Below, one piece after another: positions 23,376 through 61,078 of a stretch of DNA of 64,000 nucleotides. A program made the position numbers and the translations under genes. The stretch's first letter is position 1. Each line of letters begins with the position of its first letter. The notes under the pieces were generated by a model, which worked only from the letters and a program-made list of their open reading frames with translations, was not told the origin of the DNA and made no database searches. This DNA comes from a virus (lineage: Duplodnaviria > Caudoviricetes): positions 113,648 to 177,647 of IMG/VR virus record IMGVR_UViG_3300011008_000034; one strand, 5' to 3'.

Positions 23376-23386
23376 ATAAAAATTAT

Positions 23387-37022: not shown

Positions 37023-37059
37023 AATTTTCACCTCCTTTATAATTAAATAAAAGAAATGA

Positions 37060-39969: not shown

Positions 39970-41676
39970 TTAAAAAGAAATATCTCCAAGATAATTTTTT
40001 TTGCGAGGATCGTCATATGGTTGCCTTCCCCAATTCAATTGACTATTAGCTGGATTTCCAAAAAGATTTACATTTGCTCCACCGCTATATGTTGTACCAG
40101 AATTAACCATTCCAGTAAATCCATTTGTTAATGTGTCTATATTTTTTCCTCCAGACCATGATGTTCCTGCTTTTGTATTAGTAGAACCAGAAAATAATCC
40201 GCCTACAGCTCCACCTAATAATCCAATTCCTACACCTGTCAAAACTCCACCTAGGCCTCCTCCAAATAATCCACCGCCACCGCTATTTCCATATACAAAT
40301 CCTTGTTGATTTCTTTGTACAATTACTTGACGACATACGGTGAATTTCATATCATAAGAAATTGATTTTGTAGTAGCTTGACGAGTCCAGTTAAAAGAAT
40401 CAAAATGTCCAATAAATACTCGATCATCAAAATAAATAAAGATTTGCCGTGGACGATAGAGGTCCGTATAATGATCTTCCATATCACTCCAATTACTAGC
40501 TACACGCTGATGGTCAATAAGATTGTTTTTATTTACTGCTTGAACGCTATTAACAATTAAATTTAAATTACTGGCACTTAAATGACCTAATACATAAAAA
40601 TTACCCTGTGTAGATTTTCTTTGATATGTAGATAAATTACTTAATGGCGTGTTTGAATTATTTCCAGATAATAGATCTGATATTGCTCCAATAGCATTAT
40701 CCAAGTTAAATCCTAATTGTTGCGTATAAGGATCGCCACCTCCGCCTAATCCTCCTAATACAATTTCTGCTGCGAGATTTCCAATAGTATTTTTATCAAA
40801 TCCTTGCATTAAAGTCCCCAATGCATTTTTAGTATTATCCATATTTGTTTTAAAAGATTTTCCAGTATCTACTCCAAGATTTCCAAAACTACTACTTATA
40901 GCTCCTTGAGCAAAAGTTCCTAACATTGATGATGTAATACCACCAATTAAATTATTATTTGCTGCATTATTTGAATTACCACCAAAACAATCTCCACCTT
41001 TTAGTGATATGCCTAAACTTTTGTTGTCAAAACCAAATTTATCTTTCATGGTTCCCACAACTTTATCGTTTAAATATTTTGTAACAGATTCGCCAAATCC
41101 GCCTAAACCAATTCCACCTAACAATCCTCCAAATAATCCACTATTATCATTACTATTACTTTGAGACATATTTCCAATATTATTAGTATGTACTGTTTGT
41201 TGAGTAATTCCTTGATATTTTAATAATGCGCCGGAGTAATGATATACTTCTTCTAAAGCTTCTATTCCTTTCATATTAGATAAACCAGTTTCTCCGGTTA
41301 TTGTCATATTCCAGATGTCATCACCATAATGATGGAAATAAATTCCACCACGAGTAACAACTTTTGCTTTTAATTTTTGAGTATTTATAGATATTTTATT
41401 CGGGTTGATATACAATACTACTTCCTTTTTTTCTTTTGGTGTTAAGTAATATTCTATTGACATAGGAATGCGTTCCTTTAATGTCATATATCTATCAGAA
41501 GCTTCTTGTGCAGCACCATAATTACTTATTAAATAATTATTATAACGCTGAACATTTTGTAAGTACTGGTTTGTTGCAGCTACGTCTTTTAATGTTCCTA
41601 CGATTGTTCCAGGGATATTAATTGACTCTGAATATCCTCCCACAACGCCAGTATTTCCTGTCATATTATAATTCAA
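39970..41676 (-). CDS. Tail-tube initiator/distal-tail-like protein with Gly-rich insertions
   Basis: LYINP.KIS...TRGG...HYGDD...ITGETG and FIGHFDSFNW...ISYDMKF; lies between the tape-measure-like genes and the hub. Confidence 0.6.
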   Translation of the reverse strand: MNYNMTGNTGVVGGYSESINIPGTIVGTLKDVAATNQYLQNVQRYNNYLISNYGAAQEASDRYMTLKERIPMSIEYYLTPKEKKEVVLYINPNKISINTQKLKAKVVTRGGIYFHHYGDDIWNMTITGETGLSNMKGIEALEEVYHYSGALLKYQGITQQTVHTNNIGNMSQSNSNDNSGLFGGLLGGIGLGGFGESVTKYLNDKVVGTMKDKFGFDNKSLGISLKGGDCFGGNSNNAANNNLIGGITSSMLGTFAQGAISSSFGNLGVDTGKSFKTNMDNTKNALGTLMQGFDKNTIGNLAAEIVLGGLGGGGDPYTQQLGFNLDNAIGAISDLLSGNNSNTPLSNLSTYQRKSTQGNFYVLGHLSASNLNLIVNSVQAVNKNNLIDHQRVASNWSDMEDHYTDLYRPRQIFIYFDDRVFIGHFDSFNWTRQATTKSISYDMKFTVCRQVIVQRNQQGFVYGNSGGGGLFGGGLGGVLTGVGIGLLGGAVGGLFSGSTNTKAGTSWSGGKNIDTLTNGFTGMVNSGTTYSGGANVNLFGNPANSQLNWGRQPYDDPRKKNYLGDISF

Positions 41677-44600
41677 GCTTTTGCACCTCCTAATTCTACT
41701 CCAGTATCTTCAATCATTGAAATATCTTTCGTCCATTTATGGGTTTTTAATGTAGAATATATTTCTTGTAACATATCATCGGAAGACATTTTTTCTTTCA
41801 TAAATCCTTTTATGATAATTAATGCTATATTCTTTTTATCAGCTTCTGCCTTCTGTTTTTGAATTTCTTTTAATTCTTCTTGTTCTTTTGAAAGAAGTTG
41901 TTGATGTTCTAATATATCTTCACTTAATTTTATTGCCGATTGTTCTTCAGCTATTTGTTGATAATATGTGTTAACATTATAATTTATTTTTGAAGCCTTT
42001 GCTTTTCGTTCTTCCAAACTTTCCGGTTTTTGATTTTTATCTACAAATACTCCATCAATTAATCGTCCAGTATAAGAACTAAATGCTAATTTTTTCATTA
42101 ATGCATTTGCATCAGCCATTTCTTGTTGAAATGTTTTTGGAGGCTTTGGCGTATAACCTCCTCCTATTAAAGGAATTCCAGCAGCTACGCCTGTTATGCC
42201 ATGTTTTTGAAGTGTTTGTACTATATTTACCATACTTTTTCGATAACTTTCTTCTGTAGTAGTAAAATATCCAGCTTCTTTCATAACATGTACATATTCA
42301 GCTACATCATTTTTTGCTGCGGCCGCTAATAATCGACTTTTATATTGCGGATCATTAATTGCTATTACTTTTCTTACCCAATAATCTGCATATTGTTCAT
42401 CACTAGCAAAAATTGTATGGTCTTTACTTCTTTTTCCCCATAATCCATATCCAATATCTCCAGCTTTTAATCCACCATAATTATGATATGCTCCTCCAGC
42501 TTCATCATCTGTCCAACCAGATTCTTTTATCATTTGAGCTAATATATACTCTACTGGAATTCCAGTCCTTTGAGAAATGATTTGAGCAGTACGCAATTTT
42601 CCTAATCCTACACCTAATTTTGCTGCAGCCGTTTCAAATCCACTATTACTTTGTGTGGGAGTAGTTGGAGTTGAAGGCGGTGGGCCACCACTTCCTCCAC
42701 GAGGTTTTGTTGTAGGTTTAAAATTAGCACGACTATCATAACCAGAAGCATTGGCGTCTACATGAGCATTTCTAGAACCGGCATCTTCAATTCCAGCTGC
42801 GTAACCATGTTCTCTTAACCATTTAGCTACCCATTCCATATCATTTGCGACAATATCTACTTTCCAACCGGAATGATGAGAATATTCGCCAGGTTGATGT
42901 ACAGGACGACCATCGCTACCTATTTTTTCAGCTGCACCAGTAAGTGTAATTTTTTCCCCACCATGAGATTGCATATATGCTAAAGCTACAGCATTTGTCA
43001 TTTCTATTGCTTCAGGACGTAATTTTTCATGGTCTGTATATTTAGGGTCCCAATTCCAATTATGTTCCATAATATTTCTGTCTAATTGGGTTTTACTTAC
43101 ATCAAAATGATTTTGTGAATCTAATTGGGATTTTGCCCATGACTGAAATGCTGAAAATGTTTCTGGCGAATCTTTGGCATTTTTTGCGAGTCTTGCCATG
43201 GTTTCAGTAGCTGCATCTGCGTTAAAATCTTCAAAAGCATATTCAAAAATTAAATCATCAGAAACTTCTGTATCATCACTGTCGGCATATGAACTGGTAC
43301 TTGACATTGCTTTTGCGCGTTGCTCATATATTTGCCATTTTCCAGTTTGCATTAAATAATCTTTATAATTATTTCTTACTCTTTTTCCTAATTCACTTAA
43401 ATTTTTTTGTCCTTCTTCTTTTAATTGATATGCTTCATTTTCCCAATATTCTTTATCGTCACTACCCGCATTAGGATGATAATAATAATTTGCAATATGT
43501 GTATAAACTTGTTTATATTGAGGATTATCTTCTTGTTCTGACATATATTCAAAGAACTTTCCTAATTGGGTATTGTCATTCATCATTTCTTCTATTTTCG
43601 GATTATTTTGATTGTTTATTCCTAATCCTTGAGTATTATTTAATACAATTTGATTCATTAACTGTGCTAATGTCATATGTTCTTTAGAAAATCTATCTAA
43701 CATTTCAGACATAATTTTATTTTGAATGTCAGTCATATTTTCTACATCTATGCCATTTTCTTTTAAAAATTGTCTTAAATCTTGACCTAATTTGGTTTCA
43801 GATTTAATCAATTCTTCTATATTTTTTCCAAACATATCTGAGTTCTCAGTTAATGAATATGCCCATTGTCTTGTTCCTTCGCTTAATTTTTCTCCCATTC
43901 CTAATTTTTCTAATACCCAGTCTGCAGTTTTTGACCCAGCATAGGAACCAACCATCATGCCTGCAAATGAACCAACACCTGCTGCTGGAGCAGTTAAAAC
44001 ACCACCAGCAATACCACCAACAACAGCTCCTGTGGTTTCGAGTCCACCTCTAATAAGTACACGCATTAAACGTTCTTCATCTGAACGAATATTACCCATT
44101 TCATAGTCAGCATATTCTGATATTCCAGCTGTTGCAAAAGAAAATGCTCCTATGAATTTTGTTCCACCTTTTACTTCTTTTACTACATTAGATAATTTTG
44201 CAGCTTCTTGTGCATTCGCATTATATACAGAACGAAATTCTTGAAATGTTTTTATTTTTGTGTCTACATTATATTTAAATTGTGTTTTTAATCCTTGTTT
44301 TTTATTTGCAATGTTACTGGTAATTCTATGAGTAAATCTTCCAATTCTACTCATTTTAGGAGGTTTAGGTGGTTTTGGAGGACGTGTAAGTTTTGCATTA
44401 TGTCTTCTTATTGCTTTTGCATTTATTTTTTGTTGTGCAATATTTAGTTTCGCTTGTTTATAAGCTTGATACATTGGATTTAAAAGTTTATATGTTAATA
44501 TTCCTCCGAATAGAAGATTTCCTGCAAATGATTGAACATCTTCTATTTCTTCATTATCTTGTTCATACTCAATTAATTGTTCTCCAGGCGCCATTAATTT

Positions 44601-47600
44601 TATATGAGCATTTCCTGATTCAGACATTTTTATAACATCCTGAGAAGATTTCCCAATTTGATTACTTTGGTCAATAATTTTATCTTCTATATTTTCATTT
44701 TTAATACTTGAAGTTTCTGCGCTAGATGTCATAAATGATATAAGTCCTCCTACCGCAGCTGCACCCAGTGCTATCTTTCCACCGCCCTTTGCTAAACTTT
44801 TTATAGTATTAGCATTAAGAAGTCTTCTTGGAGCATGATTATTTCCTAAAAATTGAGATTTAATTGCACTTCTTGCTAATTGAACGCCAGCTCCTGCAAC
44901 ACCAGCAGTGGCAATTGCTCCAGCTATTGAAGTTTTAGGATTTTCTTGTGCCCATGATAATCCTTTTTGAACAAATTTGCTATCATATAAATTCATTAGA
45001 AAATCATAAATTTGCATTATAATGTCAGCAGCTGCACGTAAAAATCCTTCAATTAATTTTCCAAGCATATCATATAATGGACCGAATGCATCTTCCCATG
45101 CTTGTGCTAATTGTAATGTTGCGTCTTTTCTATCTGCTAATATTTTTTGTATTTCCGATAATTGACTTCCATTTGCTTCAATAGCAACATTTGCTCCAGC
45201 TATGGCATTTGCTAAATCTTCTTTCTTTTTTAATTCTCGATCATTTTTCCCACCTAAGAATTTTTCTAAATCTTCTATTTTTCCTTCTTTTTTCATGGAC
45301 ATAGCCATACTTACTTCTTTATCGTTATAGCCATCTTCTTTTAACATTTTACCAAAATAAGCTAATGTTAGATTTGAATCTCCAGAACCACCTAGAAAAT
45401 CTTCATACATAGAATATTTTGTTAACATAATTTTTCCCATATTACGTTGAAAATCTTCTATATTATTCCCAAATCTATCTACCGAAATACGTCCTAACAT
45501 CATGTTAGCAAACATATCTCCACCAAATCCAGCCATTCCTCCAAAGTAAGCTGTTTGAGATGCATTTTTTCCAAAATCAGCTCTAATTTGAGCAGAATGC
45601 TTTACAAATGAAGTAACATCTTCAATTAAATATCCTTTATTGGTAAAATGTGCTGTAATATCCATAGCATCTTCAGCAGACATTGATAATTCATATACTG
45701 AAGATACCATTCCACCAACTTGTTGTAGATATGCTTTTACAGGTACATTTGAAGATTTTGCATTTGCTATAGTAGTAGCAATTAATCGCGATGTTGTTTC
45801 TACATCATAATTAGAATCCTTATATAATGTTTTTATTAATGGATTAAAAGAACTATCATCTAATCCATGAGCTTCTTTTATGGCAAATAGATTAGTAGAA
45901 AATTCGAACATATCTCTTTGATTTTGATTAGGATTTTGTCCATATCGTCCACCAATACTATTTGTTAATGCACCAAAGAATTTTGCCGGCGCTTCTTTTG
46001 AAATATTCATTCCTGAAATATGATGATAATATCTTCCCATTTCAGTAAATGTGCGTCCATAAGCAGGATTAATATCTGCACCAGATTGAACTTGATTTCT
46101 TGCTACATTATATCTAATTTGTCCTAACTGTTTTTGTTGTTCAGGAACATCTTTTAATAATTTATATAATGAAAATATTCCACCAAGACCTAACATAGCA
46201 GCTACGCTATTTAAAAATCCCCAGGGACCTTTCAAATAACTGAGAATTTTATTTCCTATAGATTCATCGTTATTTGTATTTTTTGCTCGTTCAAGTTTTT
46301 GTTTTCGTTCAACTAATTCTCTATTTAATTGTTTAACATGGTCAACAACTTCAGGATTTTCTCCTAATAATTCAAATGACCGGATTAAATTCATATTAGA
46401 CAAAATTTGTTGTGTTAATTGTTCTAATGATCGGTCATAATATGCTTTATCATTTTTATCTAAATTTTTATATGATTTAATTGAAATTTGGTCAGTTAAA
46501 TTTAAAAGATTTGATGAATTTATTTCAGCAATATTCCCTACACTAGTTAAGACTGCTCCCTTTTCTGTTATATCAGCGCTTTGAGCTAAAGTTATATCTT
46601 GATTAAGCTTGTCGTTCACCAGAATTGATTCTCGTGATACTCGAGATGATACGTTAGAATAACTATTACGATTAAAAAAATTTCTCTTGAGAACATTATT
46701 AGAAGGTATATATGTATTAGTTAGTACTGGCATATTAATTTGAGCAATATGTTTATTAATTAATTGATTGTCTAAGCCATGGTCTGTTTTTGCACCTGCT
46801 ACTCGTGTTAATATTTCATTTCCTTCTATTTCTAATTGTTCTTCTAAATCATTTAATATTTTTTTAATTGCAATATTAATATTTTCTGTTTCATCACGAC
46901 TGTTATTTAATGGATCGTTATTTTCTGCATCAGCTGCGGAAATTTTATTTAATGATTTATTTTGAGATTTTAATTTTTCTAATGATGAATGAATGGATAT
47001 TAAATCACTTACAGATTTTTTATTATCATCATTGGCAATATAACTAGAAATAGCACTAAATTCGTTTTGAAGTGATTCTTTATCTAATAATGATTTTGAT
47101 TGAATTAATCTATGTAATGCATTTTGAACGTTTTCTGTATATGTTTTTAAGTATGTATAAGGGTCTATATTTTCAGACATGCCTCGCCATGATGTTTTTA
47201 ATTCAGGACTATCAAAATAAGATAAATTAATAAATCCTGTCATTAATTTAGAAAACGTATCTGTTGTTGATATAGATTTTAATGTTCCAGCTTTTGCCTG
47301 ACGTTCACGTTCAATTGTATCGATTATTTCAGCTTCAGTTTTATTTTTATTTTCTGAACGTTTTGAAGTTCTTAATTTCCGTTCTTTTTGTCGATTAGAT
47401 TCATTTTTTCTTTTTATTTCAGTAATCTTCTGTTCTATTTCTTTAGAATTATTATTTAAATTTCCAAATATAGGAGCTAAATCTCCTGAATTTAATAATT
47501 CATGTGTTTGTTTATATAGTTCATCAAATGTTGGTTTTGATGAAGGACTAACGAAATATGATAATTTTGAAAAATCTACAGAATCTAATAAATTTATCTT

Positions 47601-47786
47601 TTTTAACATCAATGTACCTTCTGATACATTTTTGTTTTTATAATTTTCCAATATAAATTTTAAGTTATTTATTGCAGCTTGTAATGTTACTAATTCTGGT
47701 ATTTTGTTTTGTTTTATTGCTTGTTTTATATTTGTTTCGTAGTTATTCAATAAATCTTGCAATTTATTTTGGAATTTTCTATCCAT
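41673..47786 (-). CDS. Tape-measure-like protein C (2037 aa) with C-terminal M15-like Zn peptidase and GH73-like glucosaminidase domains
   Basis: Helical core with Gly/Ala hydrophobic stretches; HQPGEYSHHSGWKVDI...HVD; ILAQMIKESGW...HNYGGLK...GYFT. Confidence 0.75.
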   Translation of the reverse strand: MDRKFQNKLQDLLNNYETNIKQAIKQNKIPELVTLQAAINNLKFILENYKNKNVSEGTLMLKKINLLDSVDFSKLSYFVSPSSKPTFDELYKQTHELLNSGDLAPIFGNLNNNSKEIEQKITEIKRKNESNRQKERKLRTSKRSENKNKTEAEIIDTIERERQAKAGTLKSISTTDTFSKLMTGFINLSYFDSPELKTSWRGMSENIDPYTYLKTYTENVQNALHRLIQSKSLLDKESLQNEFSAISSYIANDDNKKSVSDLISIHSSLEKLKSQNKSLNKISAADAENNDPLNNSRDETENINIAIKKILNDLEEQLEIEGNEILTRVAGAKTDHGLDNQLINKHIAQINMPVLTNTYIPSNNVLKRNFFNRNSYSNVSSRVSRESILVNDKLNQDITLAQSADITEKGAVLTSVGNIAEINSSNLLNLTDQISIKSYKNLDKNDKAYYDRSLEQLTQQILSNMNLIRSFELLGENPEVVDHVKQLNRELVERKQKLERAKNTNNDESIGNKILSYLKGPWGFLNSVAAMLGLGGIFSLYKLLKDVPEQQKQLGQIRYNVARNQVQSGADINPAYGRTFTEMGRYYHHISGMNISKEAPAKFFGALTNSIGGRYGQNPNQNQRDMFEFSTNLFAIKEAHGLDDSSFNPLIKTLYKDSNYDVETTSRLIATTIANAKSSNVPVKAYLQQVGGMVSSVYELSMSAEDAMDITAHFTNKGYLIEDVTSFVKHSAQIRADFGKNASQTAYFGGMAGFGGDMFANMMLGRISVDRFGNNIEDFQRNMGKIMLTKYSMYEDFLGGSGDSNLTLAYFGKMLKEDGYNDKEVSMAMSMKKEGKIEDLEKFLGGKNDRELKKKEDLANAIAGANVAIEANGSQLSEIQKILADRKDATLQLAQAWEDAFGPLYDMLGKLIEGFLRAAADIIMQIYDFLMNLYDSKFVQKGLSWAQENPKTSIAGAIATAGVAGAGVQLARSAIKSQFLGNNHAPRRLLNANTIKSLAKGGGKIALGAAAVGGLISFMTSSAETSSIKNENIEDKIIDQSNQIGKSSQDVIKMSESGNAHIKLMAPGEQLIEYEQDNEEIEDVQSFAGNLLFGGILTYKLLNPMYQAYKQAKLNIAQQKINAKAIRRHNAKLTRPPKPPKPPKMSRIGRFTHRITSNIANKKQGLKTQFKYNVDTKIKTFQEFRSVYNANAQEAAKLSNVVKEVKGGTKFIGAFSFATAGISEYADYEMGNIRSDEERLMRVLIRGGLETTGAVVGGIAGGVLTAPAAGVGSFAGMMVGSYAGSKTADWVLEKLGMGEKLSEGTRQWAYSLTENSDMFGKNIEELIKSETKLGQDLRQFLKENGIDVENMTDIQNKIMSEMLDRFSKEHMTLAQLMNQIVLNNTQGLGINNQNNPKIEEMMNDNTQLGKFFEYMSEQEDNPQYKQVYTHIANYYYHPNAGSDDKEYWENEAYQLKEEGQKNLSELGKRVRNNYKDYLMQTGKWQIYEQRAKAMSSTSSYADSDDTEVSDDLIFEYAFEDFNADAATETMARLAKNAKDSPETFSAFQSWAKSQLDSQNHFDVSKTQLDRNIMEHNWNWDPKYTDHEKLRPEAIEMTNAVALAYMQSHGGEKITLTGAAEKIGSDGRPVHQPGEYSHHSGWKVDIVANDMEWVAKWLREHGYAAGIEDAGSRNAHVDANASGYDSRANFKPTTKPRGGSGGPPPSTPTTPTQSNSGFETAAAKLGVGLGKLRTAQIISQRTGIPVEYILAQMIKESGWTDDEAGGAYHNYGGLKAGDIGYGLWGKRSKDHTIFASDEQYADYWVRKVIAINDPQYKSRLLAAAAKNDVAEYVHVMKEAGYFTTTEESYRKSMVNIVQTLQKHGITGVAAGIPLIGGGYTPKPPKTFQQEMADANALMKKLAFSSYTGRLIDGVFVDKNQKPESLEERKAKASKINYNVNTYYQQIAEEQSAIKLSEDILEHQQLLSKEQEELKEIQKQKAEADKKNIALIIIKGFMKEKMSSDDMLQEIYSTLKTHKWTKDISMIEDTGVELGGAKA

Positions 47787-47820
47787 TTATTCATCACCTC
47801 TTTTAAAAAAAATAAATTGA

Positions 47821-47848
47821 AAAGAGTACCACAATCCCGGTACTCTTT
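47821..47848 (-). terminator. Intrinsic terminator
   Basis: AAAGAGTACC-8nt-GGTACTCTTT followed by a T-rich run on the minus strand. Confidence 0.7.
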
Positions 47849-47851
47849 AAC

Positions 47852-48208: not shown

Positions 48209-48277
48209 ATATCAAAGGAGCTCCTTTCTAATTTTTATAAATAAAATATTAAAATTATATATCTTTATAATAGTTTT

Positions 48278-51200: not shown

Positions 51201-54200
51201 AGAATAGGATGCTCTTCAGCCCAATTGATTAAATCTTTTATAATCTTTATTTTTGCAAATTTTTCTAATATATCTATAACTTTTTGTACAAATTTCTTTG
51301 CTTCGTCAAATGCTTTTTTAATAAATCGGTCAAAAACTTCTCCGAAATTAACATGTAATATTCTTGCGATTCTATTAATAGCATCTTTATAATCAGCTTC
51401 CATTTTTTGTGTTTCAGCTAATTGTTCGGAAGCATTAATTAATGCCTCGGTGTAATTTTTAGTAGCATCTGATGGTGCATTAGGGTCAGATAATTCTGTT
51501 CGTTCTTTTAATTTTTTCTTGACTTCCTCCCAGTTTCCTTCTTGTGCAGTGGATAATAATATTGACGCATCTCTGTCTGTATATCCATTTTCTTTTAAAT
51601 TTTTATAGAATAATGTTTGACCTACATTAGAATCTAATCCACCAAAAAATTCTATTTGAGACATAGCTCGATTAATTACTGTGTCATAATATGCATCATT
51701 TACTTTACCAAATCTATCCGTAGAAATCATGGAAGACATAATGGCATCTGCTGATGTTGTGCTATCTCCAGAAATAATTCCAAATAAGATATTTTTTGCC
51801 CAGTTTTGAGAATTAGTAGAAGACCAGTTTTTACTAGCATTCTCCGCTGTATTTTTAGCAATAGATATAGCGTCTTCTAATAACATATTACTTCTATTCA
51901 TTAGTGATGAAACTATATCAATAGCTCTAGTTTCTGAAATTCCCATATTACGAAATTCTTTTGCTAATGGTGAAATATTTTTTATAAATGTATTAATAGG
52001 AATTTGATTATCATTTGCGAAGCCTTCTAATTTTCTAAATTCTATAATTGTTTGGTCTGCATTCCATCCTAAATCTTTATAAAAAGTATTAATGAATGAT
52101 GCCATTGTCCCATCATCAATATTATTTACTGTTTTATCATGAATTAATTGCGTGGAAAATTTAGTCAAATCTTGTCTAGTTTGTTGAGGAGAAGAATTAT
52201 ATTGTCCACCTACTGAGGACGCTAATTGTGAATATAATTTTTGTATAGCTCCTCGTTGTACTTGACCATAAGTTTGAGCAAATAATCTATCTTCATGATT
52301 ATATAAAATTGTTTCGTTGTTTAATTGAGAAACATTATTTCCTAGTGCCACATCCGAACGGGACAAATTATACATAATTTGTCCGCCTTCTACCAGACTA
52401 TTTTGAATGTCTTCGGTCCATTTAAAAGGATTTAATAAATCTAAAAAGCTAAATCCTGAAGAACCAAACATCATACTAGCAGAACCGAGCATTAAAAATA
52501 ATGCATCTTTTGAAGTAGAAAAAATACTTTTTATTGCATTAACAAAAGATTTATTTGATGATTGAATATTTTGTAAATGTTCTTTTGCTAAAATTAATTC
52601 TTTTCTTTTTCCTTTTAAATGTTTGATTAATACTTCATCTTTATCCAACTGCTCAATTGCTGAAATAATAACATTGTATTGTTTAATTTGATCGTTTAAA
52701 TTATTAATGTATTGATATATAATCTGCTGATCACGTTTTGATAATTGTGATAAACTAGATAATGGTAAATTAACTTTTGATGCTTGTAAGTGCTTATCTG
52801 AAACTTCATCTAAAATTTTAGACATTGATTCTAACATATATTTTCTAGAACCAGTATCTTCAACTTTCCCATATTGTTTTACTAGTTTTTCTAATTGATT
52901 TTTTGCTTCATTTTGTTCATATAATAATTGAGTATTTTTTTTAAGCATTGTATCGTTTGAGCCTAATAATACTCTTGATTGAAAACTTTGCAATATACTT
53001 TGATTTTGTTTTTTATCTGAATAAAATGTATCTAGTAATTTTCTTGTGTTATTTGTATCAATTTTTAATTGTGATATTATTTTTATATCTTGATTTTTTA
53101 ATGGATCGTGTAATTTATTAACATCATATTCTTTTACATCTGTTTCTTGATTCTTTTCTCGATATGCTTCTAATCTATCTTGAGTAGTTCCCTGAGATGC
53201 TTTTGCGTATAAATCTCCTGTTAAAATGATGGAGTCCATAAGATTAAGACTCCATATTTTATTTAATTCTTTAAATTTAGTGGCATAGTTTAAATTATTA
53301 ATTTTATCTAATAAATCTTTATCAACTGTATCTGATTTTTTTACTTCGTTTTTTAATTTATCTACACTTCTGGAAATATCCAAAGCAAAATCATCAATTT
53401 CACTAAGTGTTTTTAAGAAAATTTCATTTTTAGGGTCAATGTCACTTCTTGAAATCTTTTTAAATAATAATGCATTTGATAGATTTTTAAATTGATTTAA
53501 ATGTTTAATAATATTTTCTTTTAAAATTTCTTGATTTTCTTCGTTAGTAAACTTTATATCTTGTTCAAGATTTTCTAATAATTTGTTTTTTGTTTCAATT
53601 AAATTATTTAATACAGATACTTCAGGTGATGATTGTTTATTTTCTTTCGTTATAATTGCATCAAAATCTTGTTGTAATACTTTATAATCTAAATTATTTA
53701 AAGCTAAATTCAAACTTTCTAATAATTCATTTACAGAAGGCGGTGTTTTTATTTTTTTATTAATCGAAGCAATGTGTTTTACTTCAGGATAAGATATTTT
53801 TTTTATGCTTTTAAATTTTTGATCAGCTGTTTGAACTGCAGATAATAATTTATTTCTTATATCTTCAGAATTAAATTGAAATTGTTCAACATTCGCTATA
53901 TCAGATATTTTTAAATTTAATTCAAAATCTGAAAGTTCATCACAAATAGATTGATAAAAATAATGTACTTTATCATTAAATTCTTCTAAATCAGTTATGT
54001 CTTTAGAATAATCAATATTTTCTATTGTTGTCAAAAATTGATTTTGTTGGGCTTGAATTTTTTGTAATCCTGATTTTAATTTTTCTATATATGAATATAA
54101 GATTTTTGTTTTTGTCGATGTGGCATATTCATCACATTTGTTAATTAATTTATCTACAATTTCAGTAAGCTCAATTAATGAATCTTTAATATCTTGTTCC

Positions 54201-54202
54201 AT
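48278..54202 (-). CDS. Tape-measure-like protein B (1974 aa) with a C-terminal phage-tail lysozyme domain
   Basis: Paralogous core (VGGQY..SP.Q..QDL, TFYKDL); AAAIMGNLQHES...GAKGLAQW..GR...Q..Y...E...FE. Confidence 0.78.
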   Translation of the reverse strand: MEQDIKDSLIELTEIVDKLINKCDEYATSTKTKILYSYIEKLKSGLQKIQAQQNQFLTTIENIDYSKDITDLEEFNDKVHYFYQSICDELSDFELNLKISDIANVEQFQFNSEDIRNKLLSAVQTADQKFKSIKKISYPEVKHIASINKKIKTPPSVNELLESLNLALNNLDYKVLQQDFDAIITKENKQSSPEVSVLNNLIETKNKLLENLEQDIKFTNEENQEILKENIIKHLNQFKNLSNALLFKKISRSDIDPKNEIFLKTLSEIDDFALDISRSVDKLKNEVKKSDTVDKDLLDKINNLNYATKFKELNKIWSLNLMDSIILTGDLYAKASQGTTQDRLEAYREKNQETDVKEYDVNKLHDPLKNQDIKIISQLKIDTNNTRKLLDTFYSDKKQNQSILQSFQSRVLLGSNDTMLKKNTQLLYEQNEAKNQLEKLVKQYGKVEDTGSRKYMLESMSKILDEVSDKHLQASKVNLPLSSLSQLSKRDQQIIYQYINNLNDQIKQYNVIISAIEQLDKDEVLIKHLKGKRKELILAKEHLQNIQSSNKSFVNAIKSIFSTSKDALFLMLGSASMMFGSSGFSFLDLLNPFKWTEDIQNSLVEGGQIMYNLSRSDVALGNNVSQLNNETILYNHEDRLFAQTYGQVQRGAIQKLYSQLASSVGGQYNSSPQQTRQDLTKFSTQLIHDKTVNNIDDGTMASFINTFYKDLGWNADQTIIEFRKLEGFANDNQIPINTFIKNISPLAKEFRNMGISETRAIDIVSSLMNRSNMLLEDAISIAKNTAENASKNWSSTNSQNWAKNILFGIISGDSTTSADAIMSSMISTDRFGKVNDAYYDTVINRAMSQIEFFGGLDSNVGQTLFYKNLKENGYTDRDASILLSTAQEGNWEEVKKKLKERTELSDPNAPSDATKNYTEALINASEQLAETQKMEADYKDAINRIARILHVNFGEVFDRFIKKAFDEAKKFVQKVIDILEKFAKIKIIKDLINWAEEHPILALAGGYGLYKMAWSALGIAPKLLGMLFSSGGAAAAGGAAAAGMGFVPIISAIIIGGLAIAGLDLYMNGEKSFVSKAYRSITGQSHELPLLTKEGFSIPMFLTSIGLGGLTLAGLRHLWNKARGFFSPTTASNAKNLGFLKSLKNMKGKGKFALVSIAAGGIYYAASSVAFANPSEQVPEQPSLPKPKKGSSQIDSNVHEIAEKIHDEHEYDDGTEKSELRKSLEDGILMSQDDEHSSQDISELANQEEFSYLKEEPLLPQALRLPEENQNQDDISNLPGLRALPPQYQANYQPQKKSKINNAYQQMLDANVAGNKHLGVYNEKDAERAGFLKPGKVENKKDKKDDKKIDSSDPKRKDEMKETVGIDKRMNDVDAGTESNFEQTKAFGDAAAKYGLSSREFTSIITMSLANHKIDWGNLNEKQKQYWLDQFEEFKKADKNMQEALALASKKLSENPTVNSPEIEEQAKKEVEQEWENDDNTKGSFFQRLSEGDGYTAEMRKEMEAAANYYYHSTEKDNEFWETQANAYHEAAKEGTLDDYLERQFKSFTSHDKSSSLGTATAQEIKDFYKHLALKNYELVKREYLTIKTKERIEEKNKALTASLNSSYKKGAGARAVEAQVWNYLAPRYGTKIAAAIMGNLQHESAGWQNDVINSIGAKGLAQWYKGRATRLDQFAAEHGMDWRDVNLQMMYLDYEIKEKGYKWVVEKMQNQSLEDATITWEKGFEISGDTGSYQRRINHAKEIYNRYANGIETAGAYDLSSLGGTSGNKSPVKAPPPKPKTHAQEMSDANSFMKRLSLGSYTGRLIDGVFVDKNQKPESLEERKARAAKMWNHTYESLTPKQKDITPKEVKKPDNKAIFSPSQKPSQKTAQPQKPAQSKKLAQQQKPVQPKKPATKSSAEISQDKQESIEAEKTHLQAQIDEERQKLKEVKAEITKNEDLIPKKHFKEAVQLIEKIAKKYMNKVNIESNVDFK

Positions 54203-54214
54203 TTTTTCACCACC

Positions 54215-57200
54215 TTATTTTGAGAAATTTTTATCTCGTTTACCACCAGCATATATAACTCCATCAAAATTTGCCGATACATCTTTTACGAATTTATAAG
54301 TAAATGTTTCCAATTTAACTATTCTTTCTTTTAATCCTTTTGATTCTTCTCCACCAATAGGCATAACACGTATATCTACGGAATTTTTATCATTTATATC
54401 TGTTCCAGTTTTTTCTGCATCTTTTGCTTCATAACGTTCTTCTGCTAATTTACGAGCTTCTTGCGCATCATCTTTAGCTTTATTAATAGCTTCTTGACGT
54501 TTTTCTTCTGCTGGACTACGTAATGAAATCATTTTATTATAATTAGGTAAATGACCAAATTCTTTTAAACGTTTTTCTTGTTCTTTTTGAATAATTTTCA
54601 TAGCTCCGGTTTCATGGAAAGTTCCTTTATCATCATAATATCCATTATAAGTGTAACCGTATAAATCGGATTGTTTTACACCGGAATTTAATAAGAATTT
54701 TCCTCTTACTCCTTCTGGAGTCATAAATACACTTCTATCTCTAGAAAATGCTGTAGTACCATCTAATATTAATCGTCCTGAAGCAATTTTGTCAGAATAA
54801 TCCATTTTTGCTAATCCTTTTGCTTCTAACATTTTTTTAGCTTGTTCTCTATTTGCTTCAGCTGCAGCAAATAAATCATTACCATATTTTTTTCTAAATT
54901 CTTCACTAGATGTTCCACCAACACCTTCTCCTGGAGTAGCTCCCGCTGCATTTGGCGATACACTAGTAGAACCTGGTGCTTTTCCTTGAGCAATTGAATC
55001 TATATAATCAGGGTCTATAACTTGTTGTCCATCTTTTAATACTTCAAAATGAACATGCTCTCCTGTTGCAGAACCTGTTTTACCGGCAAATCCAATTAAT
55101 TGTCCCGCTTTTATTTCTTGGCCAACTTGTAATCCTTCAGCATAATTATTAAAATGCGCATATCTTGTTTGTAATCCATTTCCATGGTCAACTGTAACAT
55201 ATTTTCCCCATCCATCAGGGTCAACATCAACTTCCGTCACTTTTCCAGCCATTGCGGAAAACACTTTATCATTTAAATGTGCTCCATAGTCATTTCCTTT
55301 ATGAGGACGTACATAACCTTTTACAGGATGCATTCTTCCTGATGATGCTTCTGATGATAATCCATGAGATGACATATTTTCCATAATCGGAGAACTTTCA
55401 AAACCTGGTGTACTTGACGGAGACGGAGATGAAGTTGTATTCCCTTTATCTGATTTTTTATTTTCGTTTGAAGTATTTGATGTTGAAGAACTTCCCATAT
55501 CAGGATATTTTTCAGCAGCTTCCCATCTTACACCTTCTGAAGTATTACTTACGCCTTGAGCGAATGTATTATAACCACCAGATTCATCTTTATAACCTAT
55601 AGCAGATAATACAGTTGGACGATTATATCCTTTATCGGGGTCATTTTTTATTCTATCATCAATATATTTATCTATTGAAAATGAATCATCTCGCATATTT
55701 CCAGATAATAATGCATATTCTTCTGTACCTTTTCCTAAATGTTCATAATCACCCATATGTAATACATATTGAGCATATTTCCATGAATCATCTATTTGTT
55801 TTTGACTAGCAGTTCCACCTTTTGTATCACTAGATAAATTTCTCATTGCAAATAATTCAGCTTGTCTCTTAACTTCAGTATGACCTTGATTTTTATATTT
55901 TAATACGTGATTACCTAAACGATACATATAATCTTTAGTTGCATAATTTAAATCTTTTGATAATACCGTTTCTGCTACTTTATATCGAGAAATTTTATCT
56001 TCATTAGCAGATTTATTTAAATCTGAAGCATTTTCATCAAATCCTTGTAACCCACCTTCTTTTAAACCGCGTCTAACTGCTTCAAGTGATTTTTCTTTAT
56101 CACTATATGTAGCTTTTGATTGTTCATTCATGAATCCACCAAGAGTACTACTTGCAGCTAATGCAGCTTGTAAATCTGTCATTCCTAGATTTTTTAATTC
56201 ATTAAATATTTGATCTAATTTTGCCTGTTGTTCTTTTGTTAATTCTGTTAATTTTATGTTATGTTCTGATAATCCTTCAGCCGCAGCTTTTTGTCGAGCA
56301 TCATTAGAATTTACTAAACTATTAGTATTGTCCGTATATTTTCCAGCCGCAAATGTAGAAGATTTTTCGTATTTTTCTGCATATGTTTTGCCATCTTCAT
56401 CTGAAATTTTTAATAATTTTTTTAATTGGTCACCTGCCATAGACCCTAACATTCCGCCTGCCATCATTCCTGCAGGACCGAGCATACTTCCTATCATAGC
56501 TCCACCAACAGTTGATGCAATATCAATTCCTACACGGGCTACACGTTGTCCCATAGTAAATTGTTCTGGATTTGCATTATATTTTGCAACTTCTGAAAAA
56601 ACTGAAATTCCAGCAGTTAAGGGAGCAGTCGATCTTGCAATTGCTTTCATTCCTAAATTTTTTATTGACGATTCAGCTATTGCTTTTTCCGCAGCTTTTG
56701 TTGCTGCAGATTTTGCTTGTTGTCTAGCTGCTTTTGCAGCTTCTTGTCGTGCATTTGCAGCTGATGGCATATGAGACCATCTACCAGAAGCTGCAGCTTT
56801 GTTTGCAGCATTTTGTTTTGCTCGATAATCTTTTAAAACTTTTAATCTTGCTTCACGACCAGCTTTTAATTTTGCTTGATCTGCTAATTTTTTTCCCTGA
56901 TAATAAAATTGTGCACCAGTTACGCCATATCCTACTGCATGCATAGCAGTTGTTGCAAGAGGACTAAATCCACCATCTTCTTCTCCAAATTGTTCAGCTA
57001 GATCATCTTCATCCATATCACCATATTTATCTACAGCGTTTTTCATAGCAATTGCCATAGGGTCTTTTATTTGTGCTTCTTTTTGTTTTTGATAATCTTG
57101 AGCAGATGTCGCACCAGCTTGAATAGGAGTATCTTTTGTTATTCCACTATAAATTTCTTCAGCTTGTTTTTGTAAATCTTCCTCTGTTTTTTTAGTCAGT

Positions 57201-60200
57201 TCGGATTCATTATATCCGCCTTCTCTAGCTAATTCATCAAACAAACTTTCTTCTGTTTTTTTAGCTTCAAATTTTTTCTTTTCTTTTTGTGGGTCCGAAC
57301 TACCAAATCCAAAGAAAGATTTTAATCCTTCCCATAATCCACTGAGCGTTGCAGAAAAGCTTCCATTGGTAAAAATATCTACAATTTTAGGTAAAAATGT
57401 GGTTACTAATGCTAATGCAGTTGCTATGGCTGCTATTTTTCCTCCACTTGTTTTTGCGGCAGCCAGTAATGTTTTGGTTATTCCTGACGCACCTTTTGCT
57501 CCGCCTGGTGAAAACAATGCTTTACCAGCCCGTTTTGCGCCCCACATTGCTAATTTCCCGCCAGCCAGAATACCTACTCCTCCGGCGGCTAAATATCCAG
57601 GATTGTCTAATGCTTTTTTTCCTAAATCAGAATTAAAGAATTCACCTAATGCTTTAGCTACTCGTTTTAATGCTCCTACTACTATAGCTAAACCTTTTTT
57701 AAATATATCTTTAAAATTAGCTAATGGTTTGTCTAGATGAGTATAAATAGCTTCACCTAGTTTTTTCTCAGCTAATGTTACTTCTGCTTGGATTTTAGAT
57801 ATACCAGACATTTGTGTTCCTGATGCAGTAATACTTTTTTCTGCATCTTGCATAGCTTTAGTTAATTTTTCTTGAGCACCATCTTTTTCTTCTTCTGCTT
57901 GTTCTAATAATGTTTGGAATAATTCCATATCATTATTAGCATAAGCGTCTGTTAACATGGAAACGCTACGTTGTGAATAACCACGTTTATTTAATTGATT
58001 AGACACCATCATAGCACCTAATGGACTTCCTGGTCCTCCGCCAATTCCACCCATTAATCCTGTTTCTGAAAATAAACGTTGTGTCATCATCTGGCTCCAA
58101 CCTTTATTAACATTACCTTGAGAATCAATAGGCGTTAATCCAGCTGCAATATTCCCAAAGAAATCCCCGCTTTGACCAGACACCATCCCAAAGAATCCTG
58201 ACATTCCCCAGTCATTAGCCATATTTCGATTAGCTTTAGCGGTTTCATTAACTAATCCCTGAGCATCTTCCATACGTAATCCTTGTGAATTGATTAACGT
58301 ATCCATCATTCCTGCTATACTCTCGGCTGACATTCCATATTCACGTAATGAAGATGTCATATTTGTTAAAGCTGATACATAATTAGCTACAGGAATTCCA
58401 GCTTGTTGTGCAGACTGAGCTAATTTAACCATCATATAACTAGCATCAGTAACTGACATGCGCATATCTTTATAATATGTTTTCATAAAATTACTAACAT
58501 CACTATCAGACATATTATATGAATATGCTAATGCAAATGTATTATTAGTAATTGCTTGCATATCTTTAGATGCTTGTTCAGGATTAGACCCATAATGTCC
58601 ACCAACATTATATGCTAAATTAGTATAGAAGTTTTTTGTTTGGTCAAATCCAATATTCCCAACAGACATTTCATAATATCTATCAGCTAAATCATTGATT
58701 AAATAGGAATCCATTCCAGGGCTAATACTAGCTCCCATTGCTTGACGTGCACGACTTAAATCATATCGTCTCTGTCCATCTTCTTTATAAAAATCAAATG
58801 ATTTAGATATAAAATTTTTAATATTCCCAGGAGTCGGAATTATTGCAGATAATCCCATTAATCCTGCCCCTGCGGTTATAACACCTAATATAGATTTTAC
58901 TCCTGAGGTAGCTGCTTTAAAAATATCTGCAATAGGATTAGATTCTGCTTTTATATCTTTAATGTGTTGAGTAGTATTTAATAATTCTTTATTTGTTTTC
59001 TTTAATGTATCTAACGTTTTATTTTCAGGGTCTAATTGTGATAATGCTGCTATAATTTGTGATAATGACTGTGCTGCATTTTCAGAAGAAGCTATTGATG
59101 AATCTAATGCATTTTTATCTTCTTGTGATAATTTATCATACTGTCCACGATGAAGATTAACATTTTTCATCATAGTCATATGTGATAATGCATTTTCATT
59201 AGCTATTTTTGCTATATTTTCTATTGAAGCTTTAAAATCTTTTTCATTTCCTGCTGCTTTAAATTTTTTAGCTTCTTCAAACATTTTTGGTAATTCCATT
59301 TGACTTTGAATGTTTGTTCGCTGTGCAGCTTCTACAGAACCAGCAAATTTATCTCTATTTCCTAAGAAATTACCAAAAGTCATTCTATATAATATGCCTT
59401 GTTGACCAGCATCATGATATGCATTTCCCATCATTAAGGCATTAGATACATTCTGTAAATTACTCCCGGCATATCCAATATTTTGAATAGATGTATCTGT
59501 GAATTTTTGAGCTAAATCCATAGACGAGCTCATATATTCTTTTGTGCCAGGTTTATTAACATTTTTTAAAGATTCCTGAATTTGAGTACTTTGTCTTAAT
59601 ACTACTTCATTTAATCCTTGATGTAAAGTGGCATTTGTTGTTTCTTGAACTTTTCTTACAGCATCAATCTGTGTTTTTAGATTTTCAGCTGATTTTAATA
59701 AATCATCATTATGACTTTTTTCTCCCATTTCTTTGATATTTTTATACATGGAATCCATAATATTGGTAGTATTGGAAGAAAAAAGTCTGATTCCTTGAAT
59801 CATTTTTACCATTGATTCAAGACCATTATCTTGTTCCGCTGCAGTTTCAGCTGTTTCATTTAATTGTGATACTACTTCAGCGATCGTTTTTGGAATTTCA
59901 CCAAATGAACCAGAAGTTTCAGGATTTAATAGATTAACAATGGCTTCGGTATCATTTTTATCCATTAATGACTTAATTTCAGTCATGAATGTATTTACAT
60001 TTCCAGCAATAGCATCTTGGACATTTCTTAAATATGTATCAGTTACCTTTTCTACTTCATCAATAGCTTTTACACTATCTCCATATTGCTGTTGAAGTAA
60101 TTTAATATGTTCAGAAACATCTTTTATTGTTTCTCCAACTTGCTCAGCTGCGTCTATTCCTGATTTTGTCTGGTCTGATAATCCACTAACATCATCAGCT

Positions 60201-61078
60201 AAATCGTTAACATTTTCAGCTACATCAGAAACAACATTTCCTGCATCATTAGCAGCATCAACAACTTTCTGGACCAAATCAAAAAATGTTTGTAATGTTT
60301 CTACATTTATAGATTCGTCAATGAATTTGGGAATATTTTCAAATACAGATAGTACTTCTTTATATGCTGAAAATTGTTCATTAATTTTTTCAGCTGTTTC
60401 TTTATTAACTTTTTCTAAAACTTCTTCATAATTACTTTCAATCTGCTTTTTAAATTCAGAAACATTTATAGCATCTTTAATTGTATTAGAAATATTTTCT
60501 ACTTGTTTTGCAAGATTTCCAATATTTGTTTTTTCGTTAATGTTTTGGACATCCATCATGATGTCGCTAACTTCTTTTATTGCATCACTTAATAATTGTA
60601 AGTCACTAAAAACATCATTAGAAATTATATTATTGTTAGTTAAAGATTCAAATCTTTCTAATTGAGATTTTAAATCATCTATTTTTTCCGATAATCCCCT
60701 TAGAATTACATTTGCTCCAACAATGTGTTCTCTTGCAGTTTGTTCTTCTTGAGTAACATTAACAAACCTTTGAGCTGGTTTTGAAGAAGCAGGTGTTTTA
60801 ATATCATTTATAGGAATAGTATCTACAACACCAGCAGGACGAGACGTTGATTGTCCAGTAGAGTAATTGTTTTCATTTAGTTGTCTTCCTAATCCATCTA
60901 AAGATGAATTTTCTGTTACATGCTGAGAATTAGGAATACTATTTCTCATATTTAAAAACGGAATCTGTGCATTTGCATCTGTTTTTAATTGTTCACGATA
61001 AGAATCATTAAATGTAGTATTTGCTATATTAGTATTTTGTGCTTGGTCTAATGCACCAAATTTTGTATTTGTCGCCAA
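54215..61078 (-). CDS. Tape-measure-like protein A (2287 aa) with a C-terminal M23 peptidase domain
   Basis: Paralogous core (VGGHYGSNPEQ..KDM, TYYKDM); RMHPVKG..RPHKGNDYG, TRYAHF, GSATGEHVHFEV. Confidence 0.82.
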   Translation of the reverse strand: MATNTKFGALDQAQNTNIANTTFNDSYREQLKTDANAQIPFLNMRNSIPNSQHVTENSSLDGLGRQLNENNYSTGQSTSRPAGVVDTIPINDIKTPASSKPAQRFVNVTQEEQTAREHIVGANVILRGLSEKIDDLKSQLERFESLTNNNIISNDVFSDLQLLSDAIKEVSDIMMDVQNINEKTNIGNLAKQVENISNTIKDAINVSEFKKQIESNYEEVLEKVNKETAEKINEQFSAYKEVLSVFENIPKFIDESINVETLQTFFDLVQKVVDAANDAGNVVSDVAENVNDLADDVSGLSDQTKSGIDAAEQVGETIKDVSEHIKLLQQQYGDSVKAIDEVEKVTDTYLRNVQDAIAGNVNTFMTEIKSLMDKNDTEAIVNLLNPETSGSFGEIPKTIAEVVSQLNETAETAAEQDNGLESMVKMIQGIRLFSSNTTNIMDSMYKNIKEMGEKSHNDDLLKSAENLKTQIDAVRKVQETTNATLHQGLNEVVLRQSTQIQESLKNVNKPGTKEYMSSSMDLAQKFTDTSIQNIGYAGSNLQNVSNALMMGNAYHDAGQQGILYRMTFGNFLGNRDKFAGSVEAAQRTNIQSQMELPKMFEEAKKFKAAGNEKDFKASIENIAKIANENALSHMTMMKNVNLHRGQYDKLSQEDKNALDSSIASSENAAQSLSQIIAALSQLDPENKTLDTLKKTNKELLNTTQHIKDIKAESNPIADIFKAATSGVKSILGVITAGAGLMGLSAIIPTPGNIKNFISKSFDFYKEDGQRRYDLSRARQAMGASISPGMDSYLINDLADRYYEMSVGNIGFDQTKNFYTNLAYNVGGHYGSNPEQASKDMQAITNNTFALAYSYNMSDSDVSNFMKTYYKDMRMSVTDASYMMVKLAQSAQQAGIPVANYVSALTNMTSSLREYGMSAESIAGMMDTLINSQGLRMEDAQGLVNETAKANRNMANDWGMSGFFGMVSGQSGDFFGNIAAGLTPIDSQGNVNKGWSQMMTQRLFSETGLMGGIGGGPGSPLGAMMVSNQLNKRGYSQRSVSMLTDAYANNDMELFQTLLEQAEEEKDGAQEKLTKAMQDAEKSITASGTQMSGISKIQAEVTLAEKKLGEAIYTHLDKPLANFKDIFKKGLAIVVGALKRVAKALGEFFNSDLGKKALDNPGYLAAGGVGILAGGKLAMWGAKRAGKALFSPGGAKGASGITKTLLAAAKTSGGKIAAIATALALVTTFLPKIVDIFTNGSFSATLSGLWEGLKSFFGFGSSDPQKEKKKFEAKKTEESLFDELAREGGYNESELTKKTEEDLQKQAEEIYSGITKDTPIQAGATSAQDYQKQKEAQIKDPMAIAMKNAVDKYGDMDEDDLAEQFGEEDGGFSPLATTAMHAVGYGVTGAQFYYQGKKLADQAKLKAGREARLKVLKDYRAKQNAANKAAASGRWSHMPSAANARQEAAKAARQQAKSAATKAAEKAIAESSIKNLGMKAIARSTAPLTAGISVFSEVAKYNANPEQFTMGQRVARVGIDIASTVGGAMIGSMLGPAGMMAGGMLGSMAGDQLKKLLKISDEDGKTYAEKYEKSSTFAAGKYTDNTNSLVNSNDARQKAAAEGLSEHNIKLTELTKEQQAKLDQIFNELKNLGMTDLQAALAASSTLGGFMNEQSKATYSDKEKSLEAVRRGLKEGGLQGFDENASDLNKSANEDKISRYKVAETVLSKDLNYATKDYMYRLGNHVLKYKNQGHTEVKRQAELFAMRNLSSDTKGGTASQKQIDDSWKYAQYVLHMGDYEHLGKGTEEYALLSGNMRDDSFSIDKYIDDRIKNDPDKGYNRPTVLSAIGYKDESGGYNTFAQGVSNTSEGVRWEAAEKYPDMGSSSTSNTSNENKKSDKGNTTSSPSPSSTPGFESSPIMENMSSHGLSSEASSGRMHPVKGYVRPHKGNDYGAHLNDKVFSAMAGKVTEVDVDPDGWGKYVTVDHGNGLQTRYAHFNNYAEGLQVGQEIKAGQLIGFAGKTGSATGEHVHFEVLKDGQQVIDPDYIDSIAQGKAPGSTSVSPNAAGATPGEGVGGTSSEEFRKKYGNDLFAAAEANREQAKKMLEAKGLAKMDYSDKIASGRLILDGTTAFSRDRSVFMTPEGVRGKFLLNSGVKQSDLYGYTYNGYYDDKGTFHETGAMKIIQKEQEKRLKEFGHLPNYNKMISLRSPAEEKRQEAINKAKDDAQEARKLAEERYEAKDAEKTGTDINDKNSVDIRVMPIGGEESKGLKERIVKLETFTYKFVKDVSANFDGVIYAGGKRDKNFSK

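Follow-up and report, generated by a model that had tools for sequence, protein, structure and literature searches.

Three predicted tape-measure paralogs with different peptidoglycan hydrolases in the tail module of a phage-G-like jumbo myovirus

Three giant genes in one tail module

The 64,000-nucleotide stretch analysed here (the window; positions 113,648 to 177,647 of IMG/VR record IMGVR_UViG_3300011008_000034) lies at the end of a 178-kb fragment from the genome of a phage-G-like jumbo myovirus, and its tail module encodes three giant paralogous proteins. It makes up the last 64 kb of a viral contig of 177,647 bp, for which CheckV estimates a completeness of 36%, and has a G+C content of about 30%. 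Low-GC bacteria of the gut or rumen are the probable hosts of the trio phages. The three genes, all on the minus strand, were named TMP1, TMP2 and TMP3 (TMP, tape-measure protein) in the order of transcription. The gene order runs from a GT-type tail assembly chaperone through TMP1, TMP2, a G-type chaperone, TMP3, a 568-aa tube-initiator-like protein and a LysM protein to a gp6-like baseplate wedge. The region upstream of the chaperone, with the sheath and tube genes, lies beyond the contig end. As the gp6-like wedge and other baseplate proteins are encoded downstream of the trio, the phage is taken to be contractile-tailed.

TMP1 (54215..61078), TMP2 (48278..54202) and TMP3 (41673..47786) encode 2287, 1974 and 2037 residues, respectively. 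An earlier note on this DNA had described three giant genes with a common core, and their paralogy is borne out by pairwise BLASTP, which aligned them with 24-25% identity over 612-658 residues (E-values of 6e-40, 2e-43 and 3e-46). The motifs which that note listed, GG[HQR]Y..P.Q...D[ML], T[YFL]YKD, [IV]P[VI]..[YF], EDA/EDV and D[RS].G, all fall in conserved columns of the core alignment. The three proteins have a common layout, consisting of a charged helical N-terminal region, a PhageMin_Tail-like all-alpha core of about 650 residues, Gly-rich hydrophobic segments, one or more muralytic domains and a conserved C-terminal module. The core spans residues ~549-1230 of TMP1 (nt 57389-59434), ~389-1030 of TMP2 (nt 51113-53038) and ~415-1020 of TMP3 (nt 44727-46544). 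The hydrophobic segments are Gly/Ala-rich in TMP1, three in number and Gly-rich at residues 1045-1170 in TMP2, and include a glycine-zipper/DUF6861 segment at residues 1252-1298 in TMP3. Each paralog has two to four Gly/Ala-rich hydrophobic 19-mers, which resemble those of gp183 of Bacillus phage G, and all three proteins match phrog_6700.

A tblastn search of 50,697 phage records with the core found Bacillus (Lysinibacillus) phage G as the only cultured phage with a match, at a single place, the gene of gp183 (2893 aa, annotated as tapemeasure and as 'tail protein with lysin activity'). The homology covers about 500-600 residues of the core with 24-26% identity, and the three window proteins match gp183 with E-values of 8e-21, 7e-25 and 8e-17, the role of gp183 itself being annotated from its position and size. 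In the tail module of phage G (gp178-gp189), gp183 follows the sheath, two tube paralogs and the G/GT chaperones. Past the tape measure, phage G encodes a protein of ~490 aa, a LysM-type protein of ~840 aa and a gp6-like wedge, as does the window. Further, gp183 resembles the trio in its Gly-rich hydrophobic segments, and, as in TMP1, an M23 domain lies at its C-terminus. Based on the homology to gp183 and the synteny of the tail module, the trio is identified as a set of true, though predicted, tape-measure paralogs and not as other giant proteins. Matches to PF10145 (PhageMin_Tail) inside the homologous core of 11 of the 23 single-copy relatives, and also of P0005 and P0049, are all below the gathering score (best E-value 1.9e-7); they are in line with the tape-measure-like identity given in the earlier note. 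An exhaustive profile search recovered the family as 113 clusters (at 50% identity) among 1.84 billion proteins, nearly all of them 1500-4300 aa long.

The core model calculated by AlphaFold2 from 43 sequences is all-alpha, with a predicted local distance difference test score (pLDDT) of 80. Residues ~750-1060 of TMP1 are modelled as a compact bundle of many short helices, and not as a long coiled coil, with pLDDT above 90. A Foldseek search of the core model against the PDB yielded no match at E <= 0.001, its top rows being unrelated membrane proteins, and the core profile searched against PDB sequences matched only designed helical bundles at E ~1e-3, which is uninformative. A compact helical core of this kind, modelled and with no PDB counterpart, would argue neither for nor against a location in the tube lumen. 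The idea of crAss-like giant genes was discarded after the matches to the baseplate wedge and to phage G.

Wall-cutting domains and C-terminal modules

The three C-terminal regions carry different enzyme domains, all encoded on the minus strand. Residues 1925-2020 of TMP1 (55019..55306) form a Peptidase_M23 domain with a Pfam score of 85.4 bits (cut-off 28.7). Its zinc motifs HxxxD and HxH are intact, reading HKGND and HVH, and it matches M23 structures in the PDB down to an E-value of 3.9e-19. TMP2 has a phage tail lysozyme domain (Phage_lysozyme2, PF18013; 82.8 bits, cut-off 28.2) at residues 1618-1748 (48959..49351), with tblastn matches to tail lysins and tape measures of 357 phage records. 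In TMP3, residues 1733-1860 (42207..42590) were assigned to the GH73 N-acetylglucosaminidases (Glucosaminidase, PF01832; 41.3 bits, cut-off 30.2); the catalytic-Glu motif KESGW is present and FlgJ-type NCBIfam models match. All three assignments had been made in the earlier note, and they stand, with Pfam scores above the gathering scores and coordinates that agree to a few bases.

The fourth domain of that note, an M15-like peptidase, is less certain. Pfam gave no M15/VanY match for this segment (TMP3 residues ~1560-1700; 42687..43109) or its homologs, but an H-x6-D...H zinc triad is invariant in the four homologs. The profile of four sequences matched the Hedgehog N-domain with an E-value of 0.007 and the zinc ligands aligned, and a D-Ala-D-Ala carboxypeptidase with an E-value of 0.26. 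The AlphaFold2 model of the segment (pLDDT 74) has the Sonic hedgehog N-domain as top Foldseek match, at a modest E-value of 1.5e-3 and TM score of 0.48, followed by VanY-like LdcB, a Streptomyces DD-peptidase and the endolysin LysB4. The segment is therefore probably a divergent zinc peptidase of the LAS fold (Hedgehog/DD-peptidase, M15-like). Of the four wall-cutting activities once proposed, four hydrolase domain types are thus present, one of them on weaker evidence than the others.

The pairing of each copy with its own hydrolase holds in the window but is not a fixed rule, as in relatives the SLT, C39-like, NlpC/P60, M23, GH73 and LAS domains are shuffled between the three positions, and in some copies no enzyme is detectable. 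In the relative G001, no enzyme was detected in TMP1, TMP2 has SLT and C39-like domains, and TMP3 has C39-like and SLT domains. G002 has M23 in TMP1, SLT in TMP2 and a LAS-like domain in TMP3. In G003, TMP1 has NlpC/P60 (read on the G006 copy), TMP2 has no detected enzyme and TMP3 has SLT and GH73. The TMP2 of G004, the only protein scanned in that relative, has a LAS-like domain, and G005 has no detected enzyme in TMP1, SLT in TMP2 and a weak, below-cut-off GH73 match in TMP3. From these domain assignments, the scaffold is conserved, whereas the enzymes can be swapped. Relatives with a single tape measure have the same enzyme types in the tape measure or in a downstream hub-like protein. In one of them, P0097, the single tape measure has no detectable enzyme, and M23 and Phage_lysozyme2 domains are found in a 1314-aa protein two genes downstream (L048 10843-14787); therefore, the same lytic domains move between tape measures and hub-like proteins.

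A C-terminal motif block of TMP3 (KPKT...GRLIDGVFVDKNQKPES; 41919..42149, minus strand) is 60% identical to its counterpart in TMP2 (nt 48644-48874), compared to about 25% identity elsewhere in the two proteins. The block, KPKT...GR[IL]I[ND]G[MV][FY]VD, is kept in the orthologs of both TMP2 and TMP3. TMP1 has the related motif ATG[RQ]LILDG, and beyond the motif each paralog has its own conserved ending. The paralog-specific conserved modules, along with the motif shared by TMP2 and TMP3, suggest a common docking partner. A strand-plus-helix module at the C-termini of the trio looked like that of the single-copy relatives by eye only; with no statistical support, the likeness is not claimed. 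A hidden Markov model of 40 single-copy C-termini gave no significant match to the trio, and phmmer and the reverse models likewise found nothing.

Chaperone genes and expression signals

The gene upstream of TMP1 (61090..61953, minus strand) encodes a GT-type tail assembly chaperone of 287 aa, with the G domain at residues ~7-118 and the T domain at ~136-266. BLASTP matched it to the separate G (115-117 aa) and T (159-239 aa) open reading frames (ORFs) of phage G and single-TMP relatives, with E-values from 1e-11 to 2e-29. Its N-terminus aligns to the G ORFs and its residues 136-266 to the T ORFs, so that it is an in-frame GT fusion, for which no frameshift is needed. The G001 ortholog has a weak match to a tail-assembly-chaperone PHROG. 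Between TMP2 and TMP3 lies a stand-alone G-type paralog of 118 aa (47852..48208, minus strand), which was recognised by its homology to the G ORFs of single-TMP relatives (E-values of 8e-14 and 1e-12) and to the G part of GT (1e-11). It is ~26-35% identical to that G part and stands at the same position in every trio locus. A pair of the lambda type, in which G and GT arise from overlapping ORFs by a -1 programmed frameshift, was not found in the window, where GT is a continuous ORF and G a separate gene 13 kb downstream. By analogy, the fused GT and the free G may work like G/GT without a frameshift. The single-TMP relatives have the usual adjacent G and T ORFs.

Neighbouring genes of the trio locus are separated by 12-69 nt, and each has a ribosome-binding site of its own. 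TMP1 begins with a TTG codon 11 nt past the stop of GT, with the ribosome-binding site GAGGTG 7 nt upstream, and TMP2 begins with ATG 12 nt past the stop of TMP1; the stop codon of TMP3 overlaps the start of the next gene. In the single-TMP relatives the gap between chaperone and tape measure is only 13-30 nt. Folding of the segment between the G gene and TMP3 revealed a terminator-like hairpin (47821..47848, minus strand) with a stem of 10-11 bp followed by a T-run. A stem-loop with a T-run occurs at the same place, with differing sequence, in 11 of 11 loci folded (the window, G001-G005, L040, L043, L044, L053 and L054). The hairpin may divide the tape-measure genes between two units of expression.

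Conservation, phylogeny and selection

The full trio was found in nine further loci (G001-G005, L040, L043, L044 and L054), and in two more (G006 and L041) it is cut off by contig ends, which affirms its conservation in related genomes. G001 is 416 kb long and 99% complete, G002 is 504 kb long, and L054 is a contig of 501 kb. The order in the trio loci is constant, with a GT-like gene of 287-330 aa, TMP1, TMP2, an ORF of 116-149 aa, TMP3 and a protein of ~520-730 aa. BLASTP between the window and G001 gave 31-33% identity for the 1:1 orthologs, 22-28% for the paralogs and 50-68% for the baseplate proteins.

Trees were calculated with FastTree on 104 cores and with IQ-TREE (LG+C20) on 53 cores, and the two agree. 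The trio proteins form one clade (support 99-100) with three subclades (98-99). In each subclade every genome is represented by one protein, and the branching orders inside the subclades are congruent. With the outgroup as root, TMP3 split off first, followed by the separation of TMP1 and TMP2 (support 84). A single tape measure is present in seven of seven sampled outgroups (phage G, P0055, P0097, P0037, P0046, P0071 and P0061). The branching order indicates that the trio arose through two successive tandem duplications, of which the first gave TMP3 and the second TMP1 and TMP2. The 3459-aa relative P0061 had been considered as flanked by extra copies; this was rejected, as its neighbours have no tape-measure core and one of them, of 1847 aa, ends in a tube-initiator domain.

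One relative within the clade, L053 (ENA ERZ4230568 NODE_1, 171,687 bp; 9058-22111), has two copies, in the order GT, a 1997-aa copy, G and an 1855-aa copy. The two are 31.6% identical over 1597 residues and both cores nest beside TMP1; therefore, the two-copy state is a secondary change within the clade. Both combine TMP1-like cores with C-terminal motifs of the TMP2/3 type, a mosaic that suggests either gene conversion or a loss followed by re-duplication.

Between G003 and G004, the ratios of nonsynonymous to synonymous substitution rates (dN/dS) are 0.22, 0.17 and 0.17 for the three tape measures and 0.00-0.09 for the sheath, tube and chaperone genes. These ratios indicate that all three tape measures evolve fast, yet under purifying selection and to a similar degree. 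Relaxed selection on the extra copies, an outcome considered in the earlier note, was not seen, with values of 0.17-0.22 across the copies. No stop codons or frameshifts occur in any of the more than 30 genes examined. Judged by sequence comparison, the trio is an ancient, conserved and selected set of tape-measure paralogs.

Comparison with known systems

Phage G has one tape-measure gene encoding 2893 aa and a frameshift-type G/GT pair, whereas the window has three such genes, of ~2000-2290 aa, with GT fused, G encoded on its own and a hairpin ahead of TMP3. The nearest arrangement in described phages is a gene pair of Staphylococcus jumbo phages. In vB_SauM-UFV_DC4, the products 00260 ('TMP with M23', 1990 aa) and 00259 ('tail lysozyme', 1962 aa) are encoded side by side, and the pair also occurs in PALS2, Madawaska and MarsHill (PMC10638138). 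We found that the adjacent genes of the DC4-type pair are paralogous; they share an N-terminal region and a segment in the middle, and their C-terminal blocks are far more alike. Like the trio, the pair consists of adjacent paralogous genes of ~1960-1990 aa with M23 and tail-lysozyme domains, respectively. Unlike the trio, it has two copies and belongs to a different lineage with its own multisubunit RNA polymerases, and tblastn of the trio core against the 50,697 phage records detected no homology to it. The DC4 paper assigns a separate function to each of the two proteins, and a heteromeric tape measure is not among its topics (PMC10638138).

The trio also resembles T5 pb2, the Tmp of mycobacteriophage TM4 and the SPbeta-type proteins (PF10145/TIGR01760 class), which are long, helical and tail-delivered, with hydrophobic segments and embedded peptidoglycan hydrolase motifs (in part from PMC1796659). 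Those proteins are homo-oligomers of one gene, whereas in the window the role is spread over three diverged genes. For the chaperones, a two-gene arrangement without programmed frameshift is known from gp143/gp144 of the Bacillus thuringiensis phage 0305phi8-36 (PMC2147016). As in the trio phages, G-like and GT-like products come from separate genes that share a domain; what differs in the trio phages is the place of the G gene, which has been relocated to between TMP2 and TMP3. A literature search on multiple, duplicated or heteromeric tape measures found no paper describing a triple or heteromeric one, and led only to the DC4 annotation and the paper on the 0305phi8-36 chaperones.

Three paralogs in one tail

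In textbooks, the tape measure that sets the tail length is a homo-oligomer encoded by a single gene. Their stoichiometry (three or six copies) and their state in the tube are debated, and cryo-EM rarely resolves them. For the trio, the best and most economical reading, to which we give an even chance, is that the three paralogs co-assemble as a hetero-oligomer in the lumen of one tail. It is the most economical because there is one chaperone set, one initiator and one hub, the genes form one late module, the lengths co-vary and the C-termini have docking-like motifs. The three proteins would be made together late in infection, be handled by the two-gene chaperone set of fused GT and separate G, and lie side by side in the lumen of a single tail tube. 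A copy number of three or six would allow a ratio of 1:1:1 or 2:2:2. At infection, the proteins would be expelled through the tube tip, and the wall would receive an M23 endopeptidase, a lysozyme-like glycosidase, a GH73 glucosaminidase and a LAS-type peptidase. Co-assembly, stoichiometry and the enzymatic division of labour are the parts of this explanation that we infer.

In the ten complete trios, the proteins are 1713-2287 aa long, with a spread of 68-324 aa within a trio. Uncorrected for relatedness, the Pearson coefficients of the lengths are 0.57 for TMP1 and TMP2, 0.37 for TMP1 and TMP3 and 0.78 for TMP2 and TMP3. When lengths are centred on the mean of each paralog, real trios are tighter than shuffled ones (permutation p = 0.0015, likewise uncorrected for relatedness). 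The similar lengths had been put forward in the earlier note as fitting co-assembly; similar they are, but the spread within the trios means that they are not equal.

Several observations weigh against co-assembly in one tail. The lengths differ by 313 aa in the window and by 324 aa in L054, the N-terminal region of TMP1 is consistently longer, and the length correlations ignore relatedness, that of TMP1 and TMP3 being weak (r = 0.37). With the conserved hairpin standing between TMP3 and the other two genes, the proteins may be made in unequal amounts. Given the two-copy locus of L053, assembly need not follow a fixed ratio of 1:1:1. In addition, the three window proteins gave no match to PF10145 at E <= 0.01.

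Six tape-measure copies that end in a three-helix plug are reported in a structure atlas of a myophage (PMC13338283), and six chains would fit both the trio (2:2:2) and two-copy variants (3:3). A more specific form of the hetero-oligomer is proposed tentatively, at somewhat less than even likelihood. It would be an obligate tape measure of 2:2:2 or 1:1:1 composition, the first built from different gene products, with remodelled chaperones (fused GT and free G) and, from behind a conserved attenuator, a third subunit made together with the products of the tail-tip initiator genes; the relative with two copies and the Staphylococcus pair would be independent cases of this principle.

The main rival to co-assembly is that one paralog sets the length, such as TMP3, whose transcription unit includes the tube initiator and hub genes, and that the other two are ejection or lysin proteins derived from tape measures, present in the lumen or baseplate in other amounts and acting chiefly as carriers of enzymes. 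It would account for the terminator-like hairpin that parts TMP3 from TMP1 and TMP2 in 11 of 11 loci, for lengths that differ by up to 15% within a trio, and for enzyme cargo that is freely shuffled among the copies; the annotation of the Staphylococcus pair as 'TMP' and 'tail lysozyme' (PMC10638138) points the same way. However, all three paralogs keep the whole tape-measure architecture of core, hydrophobic segments and C-terminal module, their lengths co-vary, and some TMP1 and TMP2 orthologs are conserved although no enzyme is detectable in them. We therefore regard a single measuring paralog as unlikely. Each paralog might instead form its own homo-oligomer, so that a burst holds up to three kinds of tail as bet-hedging against different cell walls. 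The paralogs do differ in their enzymes and somewhat in length, but they share one set of chaperones, one tube initiator and one hub, and length co-variation would not be predicted for independent tails. The alternative tails for different hosts of the earlier note also gain no support from the locus, a tightly packed late module in which no invertible or switching element was seen, and we consider several tail kinds quite improbable.

An end-to-end array, in which the three proteins of together ~6300 aa measure a tail close to 1 micrometre, is barely plausible. Single-copy relatives reach 3400-4266 aa, which makes very long tails conceivable in this family, but an N-terminal region and a C-terminal module occur in every paralog, each in a version of its own, where a serial array would call for one set, the individual lengths would be unconstrained and yet co-vary, and there is no precedent. 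That the extra copies are redundant recent duplicates on their way to being lost is effectively refuted. Tandem arrangement and the existence of a two-copy lineage would agree with it; against it, identity between the paralogs is only 24-25%, each of them has 1:1 orthologs in genomes whose baseplate proteins have diverged to 50-68% identity, all three show dN/dS values of 0.17-0.22, and none of the more than 30 genes examined is interrupted.

If the three paralogs do co-assemble, a lineage with three long-kept, individually recognisable copies would offer natural labels from which the number of chains and their register could be read. The trio could show whether the longest chain or all chains set the tail length. 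It would also illustrate how a phage can pass a set of complementary wall hydrolases down a channel of 4 nm, a lesson of use for the engineering of tail-delivered enzymes.

Other features of the window

The first gene past the tape measures (39970..41676, minus strand) encodes a putative tail tube initiator of 568 aa. Its match to PF23980 (Phage_tail_tube_init; E-value 1e-4) is weak and below the cut-off, and its position after the tape measure is the same in phage G and all relatives. The LysM tail or hub gene that follows is split in the window (span 33718-39948) into two ORFs, 33718-35730 and 37456-39948, which encode pieces of 670 and 830 aa, and corresponds to one ORF of 1266 aa in G001. 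Between the pieces lies a TnpB/transposase-like ORF of 387 aa (35868-37031; phrog_506, E-value 1e-104).

An ORF of 302 aa just upstream of the chaperone gene (62416-63324) has a Gp53-like tail-fibre C-terminal domain (PF21882, E-value 2e-7); G001 has homing endonucleases and a TnpB-like gene in this region instead. Several homing-endonuclease-like ORFs (phrog_12131) are dispersed among structural and replication genes, both here and in G001 (window 22113-23405 and 627-1571; L009 8540-12016). Both ends of a 1022-aa ORF at 1573-4641 match DnaB-type helicase families, and PHROGs with the labels terminase, primase or helicase loader match its middle (residues ~120-500). This helicase ORF may hold an insertion, an intein or other.

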